In this document: one piece after another, positions 494 through 50,298 of the stretch
Layout of the letters: every line of letters begins with the position of its first letter
How positions within the stretch are numbered: position 1 is the stretch's first letter
IMG/VR virus record: IMGVR_UViG_3300011980_000002
Span: 96,001 to 160,000 of that record
Direction: 5' to 3' (one strand)
Source: a virus
DNA length: 64,000 nt
Program-made: the position numbers and the translations under genes
The notes under the pieces: model-generated
The model's input: the letters and a program-made list of their open reading frames with translations, nothing else
Database searches by the model: none
What the model was told of the DNA's origin: nothing

Positions 494-1102
494 ATGGCTA
501 AAAAAGAAAAAAGCAGTAGAGAATTATATTTAGATATGTTAACTAAGATTAAATCAGTATTTAATAAAGATATCTATATTTATAATAGAAGATATATAAT
601 TGCTGGAAATGAATCTTATAATAACATAATTGGAAATATATATTGTAAGTTAAATACTAATTATGATTTTTTTAGTGACTTACCAGTAAATACTAATAAT
701 AATATTATTATTTATATTCCATCTGTAGTAGATGAGAAGAAAACTGAAGTTGGTACTTTAGCTCATATAGTAGATAATGATTTAGAGATTCATAAAGTTA
801 ATAAAATAATCAATCAATTTAATGATATTCCATCAGAATTTATTATATGGAAAAAGTTAACCGAGCAATTATCCGATGAAGCTATCTCATTAATTTTTAA
901 TGAGAATAACTGTTATAATCTTCAATGTAATTCCAAGGAAATTACAATATCCAAACAGATATTACCATTAGTAACGGCTAAGAACATTGATGATGTCACA
1001 TTCTCATTTAAGATAGATGAAGAGAATAAAATAAATAAGATATTATTTTTAATTATGCATAAATATTTTGATATTTATGCTTTATATAAATTTATAGCAT
1101 AA
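494..1102 (+). CDS. Hypothetical protein
   Basis: 202-aa ORF with AAAGGAG about 10 nt upstream. No motif recognised. Confidence 0.6.
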   Translation: MAKKEKSSRELYLDMLTKIKSVFNKDIYIYNRRYIIAGNESYNNIIGNIYCKLNTNYDFFSDLPVNTNNNIIIYIPSVVDEKKTEVGTLAHIVDNDLEIHKVNKIINQFNDIPSEFIIWKKLTEQLSDEAISLIFNENNCYNLQCNSKEITISKQILPLVTAKNIDDVTFSFKIDEENKINKILFLIMHKYFDIYALYKFIA

Positions 1103-3695: not shown

Positions 3696-4031
3696 TTACA
3701 TCAAAGCAAATGCTTTACAACCTATTATTCTTCCTTCCTCGTCTCTGACAGGGTCAGAGGTGATGAGTAAATCATCACATCTTCTTCCTTGAGACTTTGC
3801 TGCACTCACTGTGAGTGCAGAGAGGATGTAGAAGGTTCCATCCTCATATGCGGGAAGCCCCATCACTTCCCCGTATGTGTTTCTGGTGAGACGGTATGGG
3901 AAACCGTCTACCTCTACCTCTTCGGTAGACATACTGGCTCTTGCGATTCCCTCTGAAGGGAACTCTGCAAGAACCTGATTGTCCTGGCTGAACAGGACAA
4001 TCTTATGTGGGGTTAAATTAATAACTTTCAT
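3696..4031 (-). CDS. Small hypothetical protein, G+C-rich single-gene cassette
   Basis: 111-aa ORF with AAAGGAG upstream and its own promoter and terminator. Its base composition is visibly far more G+C-rich than the flanks. Confidence 0.8.
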   Translation of the reverse strand: MKVINLTPHKIVLFSQDNQVLAEFPSEGIARASMSTEEVEVDGFPYRLTRNTYGEVMGLPAYEDGTFYILSALTVSAAKSQGRRCDDLLITSDPVRDEEGRIIGCKAFALM

Positions 4032-4044
4032 ATTTTTCTCCTTT

Positions 4045-4096
4045 AATATGTATATTTATTTTACTACAGATAAATAGTATATCATCGTATATAGAT
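4045..4096 (-). promoter_or_regulatory. Cassette promoter (CCGTATTT-N16-TATACTATTTATCTGTAGTAA)
   Basis: The reverse complement reads ccgtattt-16 nt-tatactatttatctgtagtaaaataaata. The same bipartite motif recurs at six further sites in the window (three with variant upstream boxes); looser variants of the downstream box occur at about eight more. Confidence 0.6.
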
Positions 4097-4181
4097 AAAA
4101 TACGGTATAAATAAATCAATTTAACATAGTAGTAAGTAACTTACCTTACTTATAGATACTTATTTATTGATTAAATGAAGA

Positions 4182-6318: not shown

Positions 6319-7128
6319 ATGGCACATACTATACAATCCAATATTCATAATCATACATTTGATCAGTTGGATAAATATGCATTATTCCTAAGTGGTTTAA
6401 ATGTAACCCATGATGTTCTTCAGTCTTACGACCCACTTAAAACTGGTTGGGGAAGAATCTTCATGGTAAGAAAACCTCTTATGGTATGGAATTTGCTACC
6501 AGGTAAGTTAAAGAAGTTTAAACATATATTAGAGTTTGCAAATACAGGTGTTTCCGGTCTTAGTGATATGACAGTTAACTTTGCTAATATTAGTGGTGGT
6601 TATGCTGGTAGATCATTTGAAGTACCGACAGTTGTAGATGATAGTACAAACTCTTTTACTATAAAGACATATGAGTTTTCAGGTTCACCGATGAGAGAGA
6701 TAATCCATTTCTGGATTAATGGTGTTACTGATGTTCAGACAACATTCTCTCATTATTATAATCAAGCAGGTTTGGAAGTTCAGCAGGCAAATCATACTGC
6801 TGAGTTTATTTATGTTGCTACAGACCAGACTGGTAAGAATATAGAGTATGCTTGTATGTTTGCTAACTGCTTCCCTAAGTCAATAAACGTTGACAGTTAC
6901 AACTATGAAGCATCACAACATGATACAGTTCCACTTGATATAGAATTTTCATGTACTAAGTATGAGTCTCCGCAGATAAATGCTAAGGCTATGGAACTTT
7001 TACAGAAGTATACAATACTTACTAACTCACTTAACTTCCACTCCGGTATTACAAGTTCTGTTATTAATCAGAACGGTACTTCTAAGAAGACATACAATAT
7101 TCAGACTGGTATGTTGGAAGAAAGATAA
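6319..7128 (+). CDS. Putative tail tube protein
   Basis: 269-aa ORF immediately downstream of the sheath gene, with a GAAAGGA RBS. The call rests on position only. Confidence 0.45.
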   Translation: MAHTIQSNIHNHTFDQLDKYALFLSGLNVTHDVLQSYDPLKTGWGRIFMVRKPLMVWNLLPGKLKKFKHILEFANTGVSGLSDMTVNFANISGGYAGRSFEVPTVVDDSTNSFTIKTYEFSGSPMREIIHFWINGVTDVQTTFSHYYNQAGLEVQQANHTAEFIYVATDQTGKNIEYACMFANCFPKSINVDSYNYEASQHDTVPLDIEFSCTKYESPQINAKAMELLQKYTILTNSLNFHSGITSSVINQNGTSKKTYNIQTGMLEER

Positions 7129-7429: not shown

Positions 7430-8566
7430 ATGGCTAATAGAAAACTCCAAGTTCATTATAAGAAAATTTATAAAAATGGAAATGTAGATACTATATATTT
7501 CGTCAATAGAGCTAAAGATGTTATTGTTGATGAGAATGGTAATGTTAGATTAAATACAGTATTAGAAAGATTAGATAGAGTTGCTAATGGAGCTAATAAA
7601 ACAGCTAAATCTGATAGTAACGGATATATCAAAATCAATGATGTTGATACCTTGGTATATGAACATCCTAAAACTGGTGTTACTGCTGGAAAGTATAATG
7701 AAGTAGTTGTAGACGATAAAGGTCATGTTGTCAGTGCAAGATATTCTAATATTTGGGGTGGGATTGTAAATGGTGATATCAGTACTGCGGTTGTTAATAC
7801 CATAGGAAATTTCTATGAGACTAATCCTAATAATATACATCAGATAAGAAATGGTTGGAATATACAAGCTATTGTTAGTACTATAGGTGGTATACTTAAA
7901 TTAGTAAAACCTCATGCATATCAAGATTATATTTATACAGGAAATCTCGAACCAGCTTTACAGAATAAACTTGCCAGAATGGTTGATGGTAGTAAAGTAC
8001 AACATACTATACAACGCCCATATGATACAACTAACCGTGATATTAATAGAATAGCCAGTATGTATGCATTAGAGAAGGTGCAAGGTAGTGCTGATAGTTG
8101 TTGGAATGTGGCTAGTAGTAACGCTAGAAGATTGAATGATGTTGATACTATAATGAATAGACATTCGGTTATTTTAAGTAGACCTGGTAGTAACCTGAGA
8201 AATCAAGCAATAACATATCATATTCCTTTAACAAGCACATTTAGAGAGATATGGACTGAGAATAATTTCGAAGAAGGCACATATCTTGTCACATGTATTA
8301 TAACATGTATAAATCAACCAACCAATCGTTTCTATAATTTCCAATTGTGTAGGAATAGTGAAGATAATGTATTTGATTCCGAAGGAGATATTAGTGCCCC
8401 TTATAGTATTGGTAGTAAAACTATAAAAACATTAGGTACTTTCATATATATACCACAAGGTGGTCGTATGTTTTTAAGATGTAATTCTGGAACTGATAGT
8501 ACTAATCCAAATTCTCAAGGAATTGTTATTGAGCATGTGTGGTATCAAATATGTAGAGTTTGGTAA
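7430..8566 (+). CDS. Tail fibre-like structural protein
   Basis: 378 aa. HPKTGVTAGKYNEVVVDDKGHVVSA resembles the GVTAGxYxxVTVDxxGHV motif common in myovirus fibre proteins. Confidence 0.4.
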   Translation: MANRKLQVHYKKIYKNGNVDTIYFVNRAKDVIVDENGNVRLNTVLERLDRVANGANKTAKSDSNGYIKINDVDTLVYEHPKTGVTAGKYNEVVVDDKGHVVSARYSNIWGGIVNGDISTAVVNTIGNFYETNPNNIHQIRNGWNIQAIVSTIGGILKLVKPHAYQDYIYTGNLEPALQNKLARMVDGSKVQHTIQRPYDTTNRDINRIASMYALEKVQGSADSCWNVASSNARRLNDVDTIMNRHSVILSRPGSNLRNQAITYHIPLTSTFREIWTENNFEEGTYLVTCIITCINQPTNRFYNFQLCRNSEDNVFDSEGDISAPYSIGSKTIKTLGTFIYIPQGGRMFLRCNSGTDSTNPNSQGIVIEHVWYQICRVW

Positions 8567-13728: not shown

Positions 13729-13771
13729 TTCGTATTTTAAGTATTATTAAATATATACTATTTATGTGTAA
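13729..13771 (+). promoter_or_regulatory. Cassette promoter
   Basis: tcgtatttt-N16-tatactatttatgtgtaaaataaat. Confidence 0.6.
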
Positions 13772-13786
13772 AATAAATATATTTAA

Positions 13787-13815
13787 GGGTGGAGATAATA
13801 TCAAGAGCCCAGGAG
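13787..13815 (+). promoter_or_regulatory. Conserved 5' leader element, copy 1 of 3
   Basis: gggtggagataatatcaagagcccaggag. Near-identical copies occur at 50269-50298 and on the complement of 28115-28145. Confidence 0.7.
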
Positions 13816-16188: not shown

Positions 16189-16228
16189 TCGTATATATAT
16201 ATATTGATTATATACTATTTATCTGTAA
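16189..16228 (+). promoter_or_regulatory. Cassette promoter
   Basis: tcgtatat-(TA)n spacer-tatactatttatctgtaaataaaataaat. Confidence 0.55.
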
Positions 16229-19484: not shown

Positions 19485-19526
19485 CCGTATTTCCTATATA
19501 AATAGTGATATACTATTTATGTGTAA
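19485..19526 (+). promoter_or_regulatory. Cassette promoter
   Basis: ccgtattt-N16-tatactatttatgtgtaataataaaat. Confidence 0.6.
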
Positions 19527-25296: not shown

Positions 25297-26625
25297 TGCC
25301 ACTGATTATTTGCACATAATCTCATCTCTTCGTAAGAGTCTTTAAACTTGCGTAGCCTCAAGCGTTTAATATTACACATCTTCTATCTTTAGCACTATAT
25401 ATGTTAATAGCAGCATTAATATCCCTATCTATTTCATATCCACATGATTTACAAATGAATACTCTATCAGGTAAAGATATATGTTGTTTATTACCACAAC
25501 ATGAACATTTTTTAGTACTTGGATATAGCTTATCTAACAATCTAAGTTTAATATCATATTCTTTACATTTATTAATCATACGAGATTTAAAGTAATAAAA
25601 ATTACTATACATGATTAATTTATGTAAACTATGAGTAGTATTATTACTTATCATATCAGATATATCTAAATCTTCTATTGTAATACAATTAGGCTTGGTT
25701 TTCGCCGTTAATTTATTTATTAATTTCTTAATAAAATCTTCTCTTATATTAATTAACTTATTATTATATCTTTTAATTTTACTAAATAATATTCTTATAC
25801 GAGATGAATCATATGCTTTTCCTTTCATTTTATTTTTATAATTTTCATTTGGAGTACTATGATGTTTATCATAGTACTTATTTAGCAACTTACCATAATT
25901 AGTCTCTACTTTATTACTAATTATAACACTTAACTTATTAATCTTATCTTCGTAATACTTATATTTCTTATAATCTTTATAATGATTAGTTTTATAAACA
26001 GTATTACCATCATAAATAATAGCATAATTCTTTATGCCTAAATCTATACCCAGTTTTGTATCACTTAAATATAATGGTTTATTATCATAATTATAAAATA
26101 ATAATACATAATATTTATTATATTCTTTAATAATTCTACCAGATATAATATCTTCTTCTTTAGGTAACGATTTATGATTAGTAATTCTTACTTTCTTTAA
26201 TAATGGTAATTTAATAATATTCTTATTATTAGTATAATGGAACCCGTCAAGACAAAAGTAATATGACTCTTTATTTAATCTTTTACGAGATTTAAATTTC
26301 GGAAATCCTTTCTTTTTCTTAAAGAATGATTTAAATGATCTTTCTATATTCATTATACTTTCTTTAATAGCTTTACTACTATAATTCTTTATCCATTTAT
26401 AATAATCAATATTATTCTTTAAGTAAGTTATTATCTTATCAAAATCATAAAATGATAAGAATTTACCTTCGTTCTTATAATAGTCTATATTAAGTCTTAT
26501 ATAAGAATTCATAATAAACCTACAACAAGATAAAGTATTATTAATAAGATTTAATTGATACTTATTTGGATATATTCTTAATTTAATAGATTTAATCATT
26601 GTACTTTCACATATTTAACCCCCAA
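25297..26625 (-). mobile_element. IS605-family tnpB-only element, copy A
   Basis: tnpB ORF plus a right-end tail (25297-25367) homologous to 30619-30695 and 7141-7218. The left boundary is approximate, placed at the shared tgaaagtaca upstream of the start codon. Confidence 0.75.
25358..26599 (-). CDS. tnpB: TnpB (OrfB) RNA-guided nuclease family protein
   Basis: 413 aa containing LGIDLG, ITIEDL, CSCCGNKQ...CKSCGYEIDRDINAAINI (a split RuvC triad plus a zinc ribbon). Confidence 0.9.
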   Translation of the reverse strand: MIKSIKLRIYPNKYQLNLINNTLSCCRFIMNSYIRLNIDYYKNEGKFLSFYDFDKIITYLKNNIDYYKWIKNYSSKAIKESIMNIERSFKSFFKKKKGFPKFKSRKRLNKESYYFCLDGFHYTNNKNIIKLPLLKKVRITNHKSLPKEEDIISGRIIKEYNKYYVLLFYNYDNKPLYLSDTKLGIDLGIKNYAIIYDGNTVYKTNHYKDYKKYKYYEDKINKLSVIISNKVETNYGKLLNKYYDKHHSTPNENYKNKMKGKAYDSSRIRILFSKIKRYNNKLINIREDFIKKLINKLTAKTKPNCITIEDLDISDMISNNTTHSLHKLIMYSNFYYFKSRMINKCKEYDIKLRLLDKLYPSTKKCSCCGNKQHISLPDRVFICKSCGYEIDRDINAAINIYSAKDRRCVILNA

Positions 26626-28114: not shown

Positions 28115-28145
28115 CTCCTTTGGGCTCTTGATACTATCTCCACCC
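28115..28145 (-). promoter_or_regulatory. Conserved 5' leader element, copy 2 of 3
   Basis: The reverse complement reads gggtggagatagtatcaagagcccaaaggag. Confidence 0.7.
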
Positions 28146-28174
28146 CGCTCATCTGTGAGCATAATATATTTTAT

Positions 28175-28216
28175 TTACAAGTAAATAGTATATATATATG
28201 AATAGAGAAAATACGG
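28175..28216 (-). promoter_or_regulatory. Cassette promoter
   Basis: The reverse complement reads ccgtattt-N16-tatactatttacttgtaaataaaat. Confidence 0.6.
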
Positions 28217-28223
28217 ATAATTA

Positions 28224-28256
28224 ATAAGGTATATTGGATAATCCAATATACCTTAT
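28224..28256. terminator. Stem-loop after the nuclease gene
   Basis: ataaggtatattgga / tccaatataccttat. Confidence 0.6.
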
Positions 28257-29368: not shown

Positions 29369-30695
29369 AGAAAGTATTAGATAGTGATGATTAAATCTGT
29401 TAAATTAAGAATATATCCAAATAAATACCAATTAAATTTTATTAATAATACCCTATCTTGTTGTAGGTATATTAAGAATAATTATATTGCTTATAATATT
29501 AAAGAATATAAAGAAAATGGTAAATTTATTACTGGATATGATTATAGTAAAATAGTAAATAAACTAAAGAAAACTGATGATGAGTTCTCATGGATTTGTA
29601 ATTATAGTAGTAAAGCTATACAGCGTGCTATGGTGGATGTAGAGAAATCATTTAAAGAATTCTTTAAAAAGAATAGAGGATTTCCGAAATTTAAATCTCG
29701 TAAAAGATTAAATAAAGAGTCATATTATTTTACAAAGAATAGTATCCATTATACAGATAATAAGAATATTATTAAATTACCTATATTAAAGAAAATAAGA
29801 ATTACAGATAGTAAATCTTTACCTAATATAAATACTATTATTAGTGGTAGAATTATTAGAGAATATGATAAATACTATGTGTTATTTATTTATAATTTAG
29901 ATAATAAACGCCTATCTCTAAATAATACTAAATTAGGTATAGATTTAGGTGTAAAGAATTATGCTATTATTTATAATGGTAATATTAGTTATAAGATTAC
30001 TCATTATAAAGATTATAAAAGATATAAGTATTACGAAAATAAGATTAATAAGTTAATGAATATAATTAGTAATAAAGTAGAGACTAATTATGGTAAGTTG
30101 TTAAATGAATACTATGATAAGCATCATAGTACTCCTAATGAAGTTTATAAAAATAAAATGAAAGGAGAAAGCTACAATACATCTCGTATAAGAAAATTAT
30201 TTAATAAAATTAAAAGATATAATAATAAATTGAATAATATAAGAGAAGATTTTATTAAGAAATTAATAAATTATTTAACGGCGAAAACCAAGCCTAATTG
30301 TATTACAATAGAAGATTTAGATATATCTGATATGATAAGTATTGATAATAATCATAGTTTACATAAATTAATTATGTATAGTAATTTTTATTACTTTAAA
30401 TCTCATTTAGTTGATAAATGTAAAGAATATGGTATTAAACTTAGATTATTAGATAAATATTATCCAAGTACTAAAAAATGTAGTATATGTGGTAATAAAC
30501 AACATATATCTTTATCTGATAGAATATTCATATGTAAATCATGTGGATATGAAATAGATAGAGATATTAACTCAGCAATTAACATATATAGTGCTAAAGA
30601 TAAGAAATGTGTAATACTAAACGCTTGAGGCTACGCAAGTTAAAAGACTCTTACGAAGAGATGAGATTATGTATTTAAATACATAATCAGTAGCA
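29345..30695 (+). mobile_element. IS605-family tnpB-only element, copy B
   Basis: tnpB plus a 3' tail with hairpins cttg..caag, ctctt-acg-aagag and the 12-bp stem gattatgtattt / aaatacataatc (30665-30688). The left boundary is approximate. Confidence 0.75.
29387..30628 (+). CDS. tnpB: TnpB (OrfB) RNA-guided nuclease family protein
   Basis: 413 aa, about three-quarters identical to copy A. The RuvC D/E/D positions and the CxxC..CxxC zinc ribbon are intact. Confidence 0.9.
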   Translation: MIKSVKLRIYPNKYQLNFINNTLSCCRYIKNNYIAYNIKEYKENGKFITGYDYSKIVNKLKKTDDEFSWICNYSSKAIQRAMVDVEKSFKEFFKKNRGFPKFKSRKRLNKESYYFTKNSIHYTDNKNIIKLPILKKIRITDSKSLPNINTIISGRIIREYDKYYVLFIYNLDNKRLSLNNTKLGIDLGVKNYAIIYNGNISYKITHYKDYKRYKYYENKINKLMNIISNKVETNYGKLLNEYYDKHHSTPNEVYKNKMKGESYNTSRIRKLFNKIKRYNNKLNNIREDFIKKLINYLTAKTKPNCITIEDLDISDMISIDNNHSLHKLIMYSNFYYFKSHLVDKCKEYGIKLRLLDKYYPSTKKCSICGNKQHISLSDRIFICKSCGYEIDRDINSAINIYSAKDKKCVILNA

Positions 30696-42808: not shown

Positions 42809-44791
42809 ATGAAACTAAATTTAGATTCTTATGAAATGACTCATAAAGATATTAAGTTTAATAATAAATTTATTAATAGGGAACTGTCTTGGTTAGATTT
42901 TAATTATAGGGTACTGGATTGTGTAAACAATCCAAGTATCCCTATTAATGAAAGACTTAATTTTTTAGGTATAACAACTTCTAACCTGGACGAGTTCTTA
43001 TCAGTAAGATTTTCTTATGCTTATTATAACAAAGATAAAGAACCTTATAAAGATATTCTAAAGTCTATATATAAATTCTTAAATAACCAAATCAAATCTT
43101 ATAATAATCTCCAATTAGATTTAAAGAAAGAAGATATTTCTATATCTAAAGTATCTAAGCTAGATAAGAAAGAATTAAAGAAATTAAATAATATTTTCAA
43201 TCTTTCTATCTTCCCGTTATTATCTCCGACAAATATCAAATCTAATAATGATATTCCTAATATGAATAATGGGGATTTATGTGTGGGATGTCTATCTGGA
43301 GATAATGATTTAATCATAATCCCTATACCAAAATCTATAAATTACTTAATTAAAGTAAATAAGAAATATCTACTAATAGAAGATGTAATTCTTTCATTAA
43401 TAGATGATATCTTGATTAATAAGAATATAAAACATAAGTGTGTATTTAGATTAATAAAAGATATGTCATTTACTTTAGACCATGATAATTCTAAATTCAT
43501 TATAGATAGAATGAATGATATAATTTTACAAAGACAATCATCCAAACCTATCTTTTGTGAATTTGAATCTTCTATAGATAGTAATCTTAAAGATTTAATC
43601 ATCGATACATTTGATATTAATAAATCCCATATATTTTACAGTAAACAAATCGTAGATTATAGAAGATTTATGAAAAATAAGTTGTTATCGAGTAACTACT
43701 CGTATAAACCATTTAAATCACATAATCTTAAATTTAACGACTCTAAGTATAGCATTTTCTCTATAATAGATGAAAAGGACATTTTGTTACAACATCCGTA
43801 TGATAGTTATGAATCAGTAGTAAGATTTATCAACCATGCTGCGATTGATAAAGATGTTGTAGCAATTAGACAGACTCTATATAGAGTTTCATCTATAGAT
43901 GGTCCAATAATAAATGGATTATGCAAAGCTGCGAAGAATGGTAAACAAGTTACAGTATTAGTAGAAATAAAAGCTAGATTTGATGAGAAGAATAATATAG
44001 AGATTATAGATAAATTAAAAGAATCAGGATGTAATGTATTATTAGGAAATGAGTATCTTAAAACACATTGTAAGATGTGTTTGGTTATAAGTAAAGATAA
44101 TGATACTTATAAGATATATTCTCATGTGGCTACCGGTAATTATAATGAGAAAACCAGTATGTTATATACAGATATATCATATTTTACAAGTAAACAAAAA
44201 ATAGGTAATGACTTATTGCATATCTTCAATATATTATCTGGAGTATCCAAACCTGATAGTAAATTACAAAAGATATCATATTCTCCAGTTACTTTAAGAA
44301 AAACTATAATAGGTAATATTGATAAATGTATTAAGTTAGCGAAGAAAGATAAAAAGTCTGAGATATTTATTAAAGTTAATTCTATATCTGACAAAATTAT
44401 AGTTAAGAAATTATATGAAGCTGCTGATAGTGGAGTTAATATCTATATCATATGTAGAGGAATATGTTCTATTATCCCTAGGAAAAATCTCTATATAAAA
44501 TCTATAGTAGGTAGATTCTTAGAGCATAGTAGAATATATCATTTTAACTATGATGGAAATAAAGAATATTATATTTCATCAGCAGATTTATTAACTAGAA
44601 ATTTAGATAGAAGAATTGAGATATTATTAAATATCTCTGATAATAAGTGTATTAATAAACTACAAGAGATTATTAAAGTAATGAAGAAAGATGAAGTTAA
44701 TAGTTTCATTATGGATAGTAAAGGTAACTTTAGTAGAGGTAAAGGAAATTATAATTGTCATAACGAATTCATTGGGAATAAGATTAAGTAG
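42809..44791 (+). CDS. ppk1: Polyphosphate kinase 1 (PPK1)
   Basis: Contains FINRELSWLDFNYRVLD...ERLNFLGITTSNLDEFLSVRF (PPK1 N-domain signature), KTHCKMCLV, YSHVATGNYNEKTSMLYTD (phosphohistidine region), and VGRFLEHSRIYHF...YISSADLLTRNLDRRIE. Confidence 0.9.
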   Translation: MKLNLDSYEMTHKDIKFNNKFINRELSWLDFNYRVLDCVNNPSIPINERLNFLGITTSNLDEFLSVRFSYAYYNKDKEPYKDILKSIYKFLNNQIKSYNNLQLDLKKEDISISKVSKLDKKELKKLNNIFNLSIFPLLSPTNIKSNNDIPNMNNGDLCVGCLSGDNDLIIIPIPKSINYLIKVNKKYLLIEDVILSLIDDILINKNIKHKCVFRLIKDMSFTLDHDNSKFIIDRMNDIILQRQSSKPIFCEFESSIDSNLKDLIIDTFDINKSHIFYSKQIVDYRRFMKNKLLSSNYSYKPFKSHNLKFNDSKYSIFSIIDEKDILLQHPYDSYESVVRFINHAAIDKDVVAIRQTLYRVSSIDGPIINGLCKAAKNGKQVTVLVEIKARFDEKNNIEIIDKLKESGCNVLLGNEYLKTHCKMCLVISKDNDTYKIYSHVATGNYNEKTSMLYTDISYFTSKQKIGNDLLHIFNILSGVSKPDSKLQKISYSPVTLRKTIIGNIDKCIKLAKKDKKSEIFIKVNSISDKIIVKKLYEAADSGVNIYIICRGICSIIPRKNLYIKSIVGRFLEHSRIYHFNYDGNKEYYISSADLLTRNLDRRIEILLNISDNKCINKLQEIIKVMKKDEVNSFIMDSKGNFSRGKGNYNCHNEFIGNKIK

Positions 44792-48230: not shown

Positions 48231-48274
48231 CCGTATTTCATATATATATATACCGATATACTATTTATGTGTAA
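48231..48274 (+). promoter_or_regulatory. Cassette promoter
   Basis: ccgtattt-N18 (TA-rich)-tatactatttatgtgtaataaaataaat. Confidence 0.6.
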
Positions 48275-48305: not shown

Positions 48306-48536
48306 ATGAGCATATATGAGGCATATAAATATACAATAACTAAACTAATCAATGAAGGAAGAATTGATGCAGTTAAAAATTTACTTTCAGGGTGGAAAGA
48401 GCTCAATGAAAGTAAATTAAAAAGACTCAGAGGAACACACAGTGCTCCAGAGAGTCAAGAAATGCTACAAAAGAAATCTATAGTACCATTAGAAGTCCTC
48501 GCGGTTGTTGAGGAATTCAAAGAATATATAATATAA
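48306..48536 (+). CDS. Small hypothetical protein
   Basis: 76-aa ORF with an AAAGGAG RBS. Confidence 0.6.
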   Translation: MSIYEAYKYTITKLINEGRIDAVKNLLSGWKELNESKLKRLRGTHSAPESQEMLQKKSIVPLEVLAVVEEFKEYII

Positions 48537-50150: not shown

Positions 50151-50189
50151 AATAAGAGTATGGTTGTATCATACTCTTATTTTTTTTTT
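50151..50189 (+). terminator. Rho-independent terminator
   Basis: aataagagtatg / catactcttatt followed by a T-run. Confidence 0.7.
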
Positions 50190-50191
50190 AT

Positions 50192-50237
50192 CCGTAATAT
50201 GTATATCCATATATATATATATACTATTTATTTGTAA
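50192..50237 (+). promoter_or_regulatory. Cassette promoter with a long (TA)n spacer
   Basis: ccgtaata-N20-tatactatttatttgtaagataaaa. Confidence 0.5.
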
Positions 50238-50268
50238 GATAAAAAAATATATTGCCTATATATAGGTA

Positions 50269-50298
50269 GGGTGGAGATAATATCAAGAGCCCAAGGAG
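50269..50298 (+). promoter_or_regulatory. Conserved 5' leader element, copy 3 of 3
   Basis: gggtggagataatatcaagagcccaaggag. Confidence 0.7.

Follow-up and report, generated by a model that had tools for sequence, protein, structure and literature searches.

Three copies of a short leader element, GGGTGGAGATA(A/G)TATCAAGAGCCCA, are present in the window, the 64,000-nucleotide (64-kb) stretch of viral DNA analysed here (positions 96,001 to 160,000 of IMG/VR virus record IMGVR_UViG_3300011980_000002), where chance would be expected to produce none. The element is predicted to fold into a small RNA hairpin next to the Shine-Dalgarno sequence (SD), and its conserved information is an internal loop together with the two pairs that close it. 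It is a new RNA family of a familiar general kind. By analogy with described phage systems, we tentatively propose that it is a translational operator for a trans-acting, probably phage-encoded protein, which would gate a subset of the early genes.

The hairpin and its conserved internal loop

The 25-nucleotide core GGGTGGAGATARTATCAAGAGCCCA has exactly three matches in the window, at 13787-13811 (+), 50269-50293 (+) and 28121-28145 (-), here called copies A, B and C. None of 100 shuffles of the window matches this core, even with up to 3 mismatches tolerated, and at the same tolerance there is no fourth copy in the window. The three near-identical leader copies that had been described in an earlier note on this DNA are thus borne out. 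In a covariance model search with filters off, the window copies score 43-48 bits, and the runner-up match 14.5 bits. The runner-up, GGGTGGAAAGAGCTC at 48387-48407 (+) within a small gene (48306-48536), resembles the element minus its inner stem-loop (E=0.04), and is probably a chance match.

Numbered from the first G of GGGU, the outer stem P1 pairs positions 1-3 with 22-24 and is followed by a U4.G21 pair. The inner stem P2 pairs G8, A9 and U10 with A14, U15 and C16 around a three-base loop, A-R-N. Between the stems, the unpaired positions are G5, G6 and A7 on the 5' side and A17, A18, G19 and A20 on the 3' side. P1 is GGG/CCC in the window. The parts of the three copies and the genes that follow them are:

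Copy A, hairpin, 13787-13810 (+): P1 13787-13789/13808-13810, U.G pair 13790/13807; 47.6 bits; from fold and covariation
Copy A, internal parts (+): 5' loop GGA 13791-13793, P2 GATAATATC 13794-13802, 3' loop AAGA 13803-13806
Copy A, gene (+): SD GGAG 13812-13815, ATG 13821, end 14075; 84 amino acids, no assigned function
Copy B, hairpin, 50269-50292 (+): P1 50269-50271/50290-50292, U.G pair 50272/50289; 46.8 bits
Copy B, internal parts (+): GGA 50273-50275, P2 50276-50284, AAGA 50285-50288
Copy B, gene (+): SD GGAG 50295-50298, ATG 50304, end 51008; 234 amino acids, no assigned function
Copy C, hairpin, 28122-28145 (-): P2 loop AGT where the others have AAT; 43.5 bits
Copy C, gene (-): SD GGAG 28118-28115, ATG 28106, end 27705; 133 amino acids, no assigned function

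In each case GGAG begins 1-3 nucleotides past the core and an ATG follows. The element lies between promoter and start codon, as originally described; the SD, which had been taken for its 3' end, instead follows the hairpin, and the start codons are corrected to 13821, 50304 and 28106. The flanks and coding sequences of the three copies do not align, except for a common block farther upstream, and there is no detectable similarity among the 84-, 234- and 133-residue products, in agreement with the view that they are unrelated. PHROGs and Pfam searches with the three products identified no family, the sole Pfam trace being a sub-threshold match of the 234-residue protein to Phage_nozzle (E=0.059). 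The genes of copies A, B and C have G+C contents of 0.449, 0.349 and 0.321, compared with 0.269 for the window. The G+C enrichment that had been noted for all three is therefore clear for the first two and only modest for the third, which falls between the 75th and 90th percentile of 300-nucleotide windows. A homologue of the 84-residue protein is found in locus L001, and homologues of the 133-residue protein in L229 and L257; these homologues have the motif in front of them too.

The case for structure rests on covariation and not on stability, since the fold is energetically weak: the folded stretches, two of which take in the upstream hairpin P0 (described below), have energies of -5.8 to -11.7 kcal/mol and z-scores of -0.6 to -1.3. 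A covariance model built from the first 24 sequences and run on 86 sources gave 95 matches, 75 of them distinct. In the 75 distinct sequences, standard pairs occupy 93.7% of the cells and both sides of a pair have changed in 62 cells, figures that lean towards structure, as the alignment is model-fitted and the search patterns fixed parts of the core. Neither value is reached in any of 500 shuffles, and pairing drops to 27-53% when the 3' partners are slid by one column. The GGGT...GCCC closing stem and the GAT...ATC inner stem, first suggested from the window alone, are thus both predicted by folding and backed by covariation.

Elsewhere, P1 is replaced by CGG/CCG, AGG/CCU, UGG/CCA, GGUG/CACC, GGGA/UCCC, GGGU/ACCC, GAG/CUC or CAG/CUG, and its third pair is GC in 33, CG in 19, AU in 12 and UA in 4 cases. 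P2 is usually GAUARNAUC. Its pairs in intergenic leaders are GAU/AUC, GAU/GUC, GGC/GCC, GGG/CCC, GGU/GCC or a helix of seven base pairs, with GGC-AAAA-GCC and GGG-UGAC-CCC among the replacements. At one orthologous site, three phages have GGU-AAGAUA-GCC, GGC-AAGAUA-GCC and GGG-AAGGAAA-CCC. Because the intergenic replacements keep the pairing, P2 is a true helix, the sequence of which is of little importance. The matches listed by the scan with a free inner stem were mostly chance occurrences in G+C-rich coding sequence, and intergenic leader positions alone were accepted from it.

Against these variable stems stands the near-invariant asymmetric internal loop, 5'-U(G/A)(G/A)A-G / C-AAGA-G-3'. 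The U4.G21 pair is kept in 74 of the 75 distinct sequences, the remaining one having C-G, and in a wider curated set C-G is found at 3 of 103 sites. The outer-stem positions were unspecified in some scans, and loop positions in others. When the 5' or the 3' loop was left unspecified, AAGA was the sole 3' loop recovered at genuine sites and GGA, with rare AGA or GAA exceptions, the sole 5' loop; all other loop combinations lay in coding sequence without a gene start. The search patterns thus do not account for the loop conservation. Of the 103 sites, 98 have GGAG in the 5' loop. AGA variants occur at genuine leader sites in L040 (at 2392) and L178, and a GAA variant in L001 (at 1758). These functional-looking AGAG and GAAG versions weaken the idea that the GGAG inside the element is an extra SD, and a second SD was rejected as the defining feature. 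As the G.U pairs are needed, the hairpin can form on the sense strand only.

The position of the element relative to the ribosome-binding site is also constrained. Measured from the core end (G21), the start codon is most often 13-14 nucleotides away (59 of 103 sites), and in 63 of the 103 the SD starts within -1 to +1 nucleotides of the end of P1. The SD is unpaired in every leader fold, in many contexts. In a few leaders, the inner stem-loop is seen by inspection to be complementary to the spacer that precedes the start codon, but this is not general.

Many leaders have a second hairpin, P0, which is fully variable in sequence and ends 0-2 nucleotides 5' of P1. It is found in 40 of 91 canonical instances, with 3.9 expected from shuffles, and in 33 of the 40 it abuts P1 without a linker. 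In a second class of leaders, an additional conserved hairpin, for example CAGGCAACC..GGUUGAGCCUG, is inserted between the element and the SD. The gap between them is then 43-47 nucleotides in sequence, and the inserted hairpin keeps both spatially adjacent. These leaders total 75-80 nucleotides and may represent a larger structured unit.

P0 of copy B, 50255-50266 (+): CCTATATATAGG, 2 nucleotides 5' of the motif; from fold
P0 of copy C, 28147-28160 (-): GCTCACAGATGAGC, covarying at the orthologous sites in L257 and L229
Second-class leaders in L024: 9435-9464 (-), 11155-11184, 12153-12182
Second-class leader in L031: 9882-9911 (-)
Second-class leader in L035: 3873-3902
Second-class leader in L033: 6831-6860
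Second-class leader in L037: 3696-3725 (-)

Occurrence, promoters and neighbouring genes

Pattern scans of viral contigs identified 23 loci by the strict core and 39 by a shorter core, plus further variants. Among bacterial and archaeal assemblies (one per GTDB species, 185,579 species), there are only 6 loci, all on three rumen or gut assembled genomes labelled Lachnospiraceae or Pseudobutyrivibrio. Metagenome contigs account for 94 loci. Several of these are from the human gut by record name, and the rumen is named as the source only for two genome-assembly records. A 258-kb contig in one of the bacterial bins encodes a phage-type RNA polymerase subunit and topoisomerase II, and is therefore a giant phage binned with a bacterium. 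L024 and L033 also encode RNA polymerase subunits of the phiKZ/AR9 type. The classifiable carriers are thus giant phages with a multisubunit RNA polymerase, and 26 of 114 related loci have proteins in common with the window.

About 97 distinct instances are left once chance matches in coding sequence are discarded, and one 210-kb genome has at least six copies. The three copies of the window are clearly neither the only ones nor the product of one recent duplication. Acceptance of an instance needed, among other criteria, an SD-like sequence and a start codon downstream, so all accepted copies are by construction on the sense strand and upstream of a gene; a few perfect-core copies without a nearby SD and gene start were set aside. 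A blastn search of 50,697 deposited phage genomes with the 32-nucleotide element found no copy. In AR9, the nearest cultured relative, there is none in nine early leaders that were folded and inspected, and none was found by the covariance model, with filters off, in 56 kb including the first 50 kb.

Some matches deserve separate mention. The look-alikes GGT(A/G)GAGATAGGATCAAGAGCCGATG in L198, L200, L202, L223 (for example at 6929-6958), L253, L184 and L213 are on contigs of 38-59% G+C. They appear to be the reverse strand of a conserved coding region, and are non-members that contaminate naive pattern searches. The instances at 944-973 (-) of L174 and 7979-8008 (-) of L175 are flanked on both sides by direct repeats of about 20-30 nucleotides, gtccccttagcgggggtattatttctaaacg and ccttataggtacggtattac, and have no start codon at the usual distance; they may be part of tandem arrays of leader-like units. 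In L004 (7190-7278, -) and L238 (7114-7191, -), the element lies 15-60 nucleotides past a tRNA-Lys and a tRNA-Ile gene, respectively, on the same strand, and the leader may be co-transcribed with the tRNA precursor or processed from it.

At least 64 unrelated families of small proteins follow the 97 instances, and hardly any of them has a known domain; a Pfam search with ten downstream proteins from other loci found only one domain, of unknown function. In view of this diversity, the element is a general expression module and not the sensor of a single pathway. A single-family autoregulatory operator was considered and rejected, as no family dominates the 64.

The common block upstream of the three window copies is (C)CGTAT-N14-24-GATATACTAT-N6-G. 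Followed by TAA, it occurs at seven or more window sites, usually directly after a terminator-like hairpin, and the same block is present in the related contigs L001, L161, L164, L165, L167 and L222.

All promoter-block sites: 4064-4105 (-), 13731-13768, 16190-16228, 19485-19526, 28178-28216 (-), 48231-48274, 50192-50234
Predicted early promoter of copy A, 13731-13768 (+): CGTAT 13731-13735, TATATACTAT 13752-13761, 6-nucleotide spacer, start G13768
Predicted early promoter of copy B, 50192-50234 (+): CCGTAA 50192-50197, TATACTAT 50220-50227, 6-nucleotide spacer, start G50234
Predicted early promoter of copy C, 28178-28216 (-): CCGTAT 28216-28211, TATATACTAT 28194-28185, 6-nucleotide spacer, start G28178

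The block of copy B is 3' of a terminator-like hairpin (50151-50181), and that of copy C just downstream of a palindromic one (28224-28256). The mapped early promoters of AR9, which are used by the injected virion RNA polymerase, have the form AAATATATATTAT-N6-G(+1), many with CCGTAT(T/C)AAA upstream (PMC5312081). The window block shares the AT-rich stretch ending in TAT, the 6-nucleotide spacer, the G and often the upstream CCGTAT. By analogy, it is probably the early promoter of this phage, with predicted starts at G13768, G50234 and G28178. The predicted leaders would then be 53, 70 and 72 nucleotides long, with the element 19-35 nucleotides from the predicted 5' end.

Only three of at least seven window leaders of this promoter class contain the element. 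In the four others, near 4064 (-), 16228, 19526 and 48274, TAAAATAAATATATA runs straight into AAGGAG and an ATG. The element is therefore an optional insert of about 26-45 nucleotides. The gene at 3696-4031 (-) has a leader without the element, and its homologues in L001 and L164 have leaders with it. This gene belongs to a family of small proteins of 111-139 residues that begin with M-K-x-I-N-L-T-P-H and have no Pfam match (also L001:1700-1757 (-), L164, L017 and L019), a recurrent early gene family with leaders of both kinds. In other phage groups, different sequences are found upstream of the element, including a sigma-A-like TTGATT...TATAAT, and hence it is not part of any one promoter. 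The proposal that the element is a portable 5' module, one of three possibilities in the earlier note, is supported by the 64 families, the presence or absence before orthologues and the insertion into a standard early leader.

The window has a G+C content of about 27%. Its proteins include a contractile tail sheath, a phiKZ-type virion protein, an NAD-dependent DNA ligase, pieces of a DNA polymerase and a member of a phage 'polymerase' family. The best relatives of the sheath, at about 26% identity, are those of phiR1-37, PBS1, AR9 and giant Staphylococcus phages, and a megablast search of the neighbourhood against the 50,697 deposited phage genomes found no close DNA relative. Taken together, gene content, sheath relatives and the lack of close deposited DNA indicate that a very AT-rich, uncultured giant myovirus, a distant relative of the AR9/PBS1 group, is the source of the window.

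Copy C has a TnpB gene on either side, the two being 77% identical, and its location in a TnpB-bracketed island, as first described, is thus correct. The genes are:

TnpB gene 1, 25358-26599 (-): Pfam OrfB_IS605 and Cas12f1-like_TNB
TnpB gene 2, 29387-30628 (+): Pfam OrfB_IS605 and Cas12f1-like_TNB

They are transcribed divergently and bracket a 2.8-kb block of minus-strand genes, with no tnpA seen. L229 and L257 are syntenic with the genes around the pair, and TnpB homologues are also found in L040, L128 and L240. An IS200/IS605 subterminal hairpin was rejected as the identity of the element, as the two other window copies are tens of kb away from the TnpB genes and just 3 of the 114 related loci have a TnpB homologue. 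The window also encodes, at 42809-44791 (+), a full-length polyphosphate kinase 1 (PPK1) in which the four PPK1 domains are all recognised (lowest E-value 9e-65). Such an auxiliary gene is uncommon in phages; L002, L007 and L194 have homologues.

Possible readers of the loop

The element is strand-specific, dependent on G.U pairs, located in a transcribed leader, independent of the promoter and tied to the ribosome-binding site, all of which argues for an action on the mRNA at translation initiation. About 11 invariant unpaired or closing nucleotides are carried by freely changing stems, which suggests that the site is read by a macromolecule. What characterizes a translational operator, a conserved cis element beside the ribosome-binding site of several mRNAs, is found here.

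In the operator that we tentatively favour, the stems would act as scaffolding only and would display the near-invariant loop 4-5 base pairs from the SD. The loop would be read in a sequence-specific manner by a trans-acting protein, which most likely is conserved in the phage group and either encoded by the phage or brought in with the virion. Since the site is directly against the ribosome-binding site, the bound protein could set the translation of unrelated early genes. The most probable effect would be that the tagged early genes are shut off after the early phase, as in the case of T4 RegA. The data show the fold, the loop conservation, the fixed place next to the SD, the optional and modular use, and the setting behind early-type promoters; binding, the identity of the protein and the direction of the effect (repression or activation) are what we infer. 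The carrier range, which consists of giant phages and in which bacterial matches are only binned phage contigs, fits a factor that travels with the phage lineage. Among the three possibilities raised earlier, an RNA operator or protein-binding site has the best support (covariation, sense-strand restriction and proximity to the SD), short of proof.

Several points weigh against such an operator. Of the 68 predicted window proteins, 63 were searched against Pfam, with no recognisable RNA-binding domain and no L7Ae-like domain among them. No recurrent neighbour gene emerged as a candidate binder among 752 open reading frames from 50 sources (49 genome-fragment loci and the window). Translation of early mRNAs precedes the synthesis of any new phage protein, so that a host factor or the ribosome would be an equally natural reader. 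Loop conservation this strong, in phages that share proteins at no more than about 26-30% identity, would sooner be expected of a contact with conserved cellular machinery; the loop conservation may be somewhat overstated and divergent members missed, as most sequences were found by part-fixed core patterns. Finally, the tight SD spacing could reflect geometric coupling with the ribosome, and not simple occlusion.

These considerations lead to another possibility, less than even but a serious one, namely that the element is a ribosome-docking enhancer. The hairpin would stack on the helix of SD and anti-SD, and the purine loop would contact the 30S platform, either rRNA or a protein that could be from the host or supplied by the phage. 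Tagged early mRNAs would thereby get privileged initiation from the first minute. At 63 of 103 sites the SD starts no more than one nucleotide from the stem end, the distance to the ATG is sharply fixed, and the inserted hairpin of the second leader class keeps motif and SD close in space. The linker-free abutment of P0 (33 of 40) would be expected for a junction-like stack on the ribosome, and the extreme conservation of the loop over divergent phages would also be explained. The timing fits as well, because early genes are translated when only host or virion components exist. However, a minority of sites are 20-55 nucleotides from the start codon, and motif-free leaders have an equally strong SD, which is evidently sufficient. 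Inspection revealed no complementarity to the 3' tail of 16S rRNA beyond the SD, and the element is in no bacterial gene, though some host use might be expected.

In a related and rather doubtful variant, the loop would be a tag, either read by the ribosome or a virion-delivered factor for privileged early translation, or used to route messages out of an early infection compartment.

It is unlikely that the element primarily determines the fate of the mRNA, as an endoribonuclease site that inactivates early messages or as a protective 5' stabiliser. T4 RegB cuts GGAG in the SD regions of early messages, and the confinement of the element to early genes, the GGAG in almost all 5' loops and the location of the hairpin near the predicted 5' end, often with a second hairpin before it, would suit such a role. 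The AGAG and GAAG variants at genuine sites speak against cleavage at GGAG, and a stabiliser requires a stable stem, not some 11 invariant loop nucleotides. With 3-5 base pairs the stems are short, the fold is weak, and the fixed SD spacing would be left unexplained.

A riboswitch or ion sensor, in which the loop would tune translation by binding a small molecule indicative of conditions in the infected cell, is very improbable. A small conserved internal loop with variable stems in a leader beside the ribosome-binding site would be compatible with this idea. However, there is no expression platform, as no alternative pairing hides the SD or start codon and no terminator follows. Moreover, the 64 downstream families lack functional coherence, no Rfam riboswitch matches even at permissive thresholds, and the structured part is only about 24 nucleotides long. 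A riboswitch class was rejected on such grounds; an SD that is never sequestered fits an operator and not a riboswitch.

A role at the DNA level is scarcely credible, whether the sequence were an operator for a DNA-binding protein (another of the earlier possibilities) or belonged to a mobile cassette as its hairpin end or recombination site, with IS200/IS605 as one conceivable mobilising machinery. In its favour are the partial palindrome, the position of one copy between two TnpB genes, and the gain or loss of the element before orthologous genes. Against it, the conserved U.G pair and the G.U pairs in both stems would be A.C mismatches on the opposite strand, the orientation is strictly sense with a fixed start-codon distance, almost all copies (including two of the three in the window) are far from TnpB, at least two promoter types are found upstream, and the inner stem is free to change in length and sequence.

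To our knowledge, host-independent control of transcription is established for giant phages with their own RNA polymerases, and almost nothing has been described on their control of translation. In a large group of uncultured giant phages from rumen and gut, some of the early messages bear a compact structured RNA, backed by covariation. It points to a set of genes that are co-regulated post-transcriptionally, and to a factor that reads it. In practical terms, the element offers a search handle for early genes and for the carrier phage group in metagenomes, and a well-defined bait with which to find what binds it. A small portable part for expression control could also come of it, provided that it enhances or gates translation in Firmicutes. 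Should it be a tag for privileged translation, it would represent a structured and sequence-specific takeover of initiation, additional to the SD, in bacterial viruses.

Comparison with described elements

The element does not appear among catalogued RNA families. At gathering thresholds, no Rfam 15 family is matched anywhere in the window. With E-values up to 10, the regions around copy B and the three L024 copies gave unrelated sub-threshold matches only, the best one overlapping the element being preQ1-II (23 bits, 47 required). A search for the sequence string of the element in the full text of 8.3 million papers had no match, keyword searches found no description, and the paper on phage 201phi2-1 contains nothing comparable. 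The AR9 transcriptome study reports an unnamed motif in early 5' untranslated regions (Lavysh et al. 2017, PMC5312081, Fig. S3). This predicted motif of the nearest cultured relative, with no function assigned, is likewise conserved and located in early-gene leaders; the nine AR9 early leaders folded here and the 56 kb scanned show no copy of the present element.

The internal loop resembles a k-turn in being an asymmetric purine-rich loop between helices, with possible tandem sheared pairs G6.A20 and A7.G19, a G-C pair closing one helix and variable loop nucleotides on one side. A canonical k-turn was rejected: the register with a 3-nucleotide bulge needs G8.A20 and A9.G19, but positions 8-10 pair with 14-16 as a covarying helix. 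The alternative register differs from a k-turn in leaving a 2-nucleotide bulge and an extra nucleotide on the opposite strand.

With CsrA/RsmA sites, the element shares a GGA in an exposed loop and a second GGA in the SD about 20 nucleotides downstream, a spacing that would suit a CsrA dimer. In CsrA sites, the GGA is located in a terminal loop. A CsrA/RsmA site was rejected, as the GGA here sits in an internal loop and is replaced by AGA or GAA at genuine sites, and AAGAG and the U.G pair have no CsrA counterpart. The T4 RegB sites and the Gram-positive STAB-SD also place a GGAG in the leaders of early or highly expressed mRNAs, at or upstream of the SD, where it affects the fate of the mRNA. 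In contrast to these, the GGAG of the element is dispensable, the AAGAG on the opposite strand is equally conserved, and a covarying hairpin surrounds both.

The operators of the MS2 and PP7 coat proteins are also small hairpins by a ribosome-binding site, in which unpaired purines are read and the stems are free to covary. Binding to them represses translation. They have a single bulged A and a terminal loop, include the start codon and control one gene. The element, in contrast, has a 3-by-4 internal loop, leaves SD and start codon free, and is found before dozens of genes in giant phages with double-stranded DNA genomes.

In the T4 RegA system, one trans-acting phage protein represses many unrelated early mRNAs through a common site in the ribosome-binding region that is optional among early leaders, much as proposed here. 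RegA sites are short, unstructured and AU-rich, and overlap the start codon, whereas the element is a structured hairpin with a purine-rich internal loop upstream of the SD. In terms of function, the element is thus closest to the RegA regulon and the coat-protein operators, and in terms of structure it forms a family of its own.

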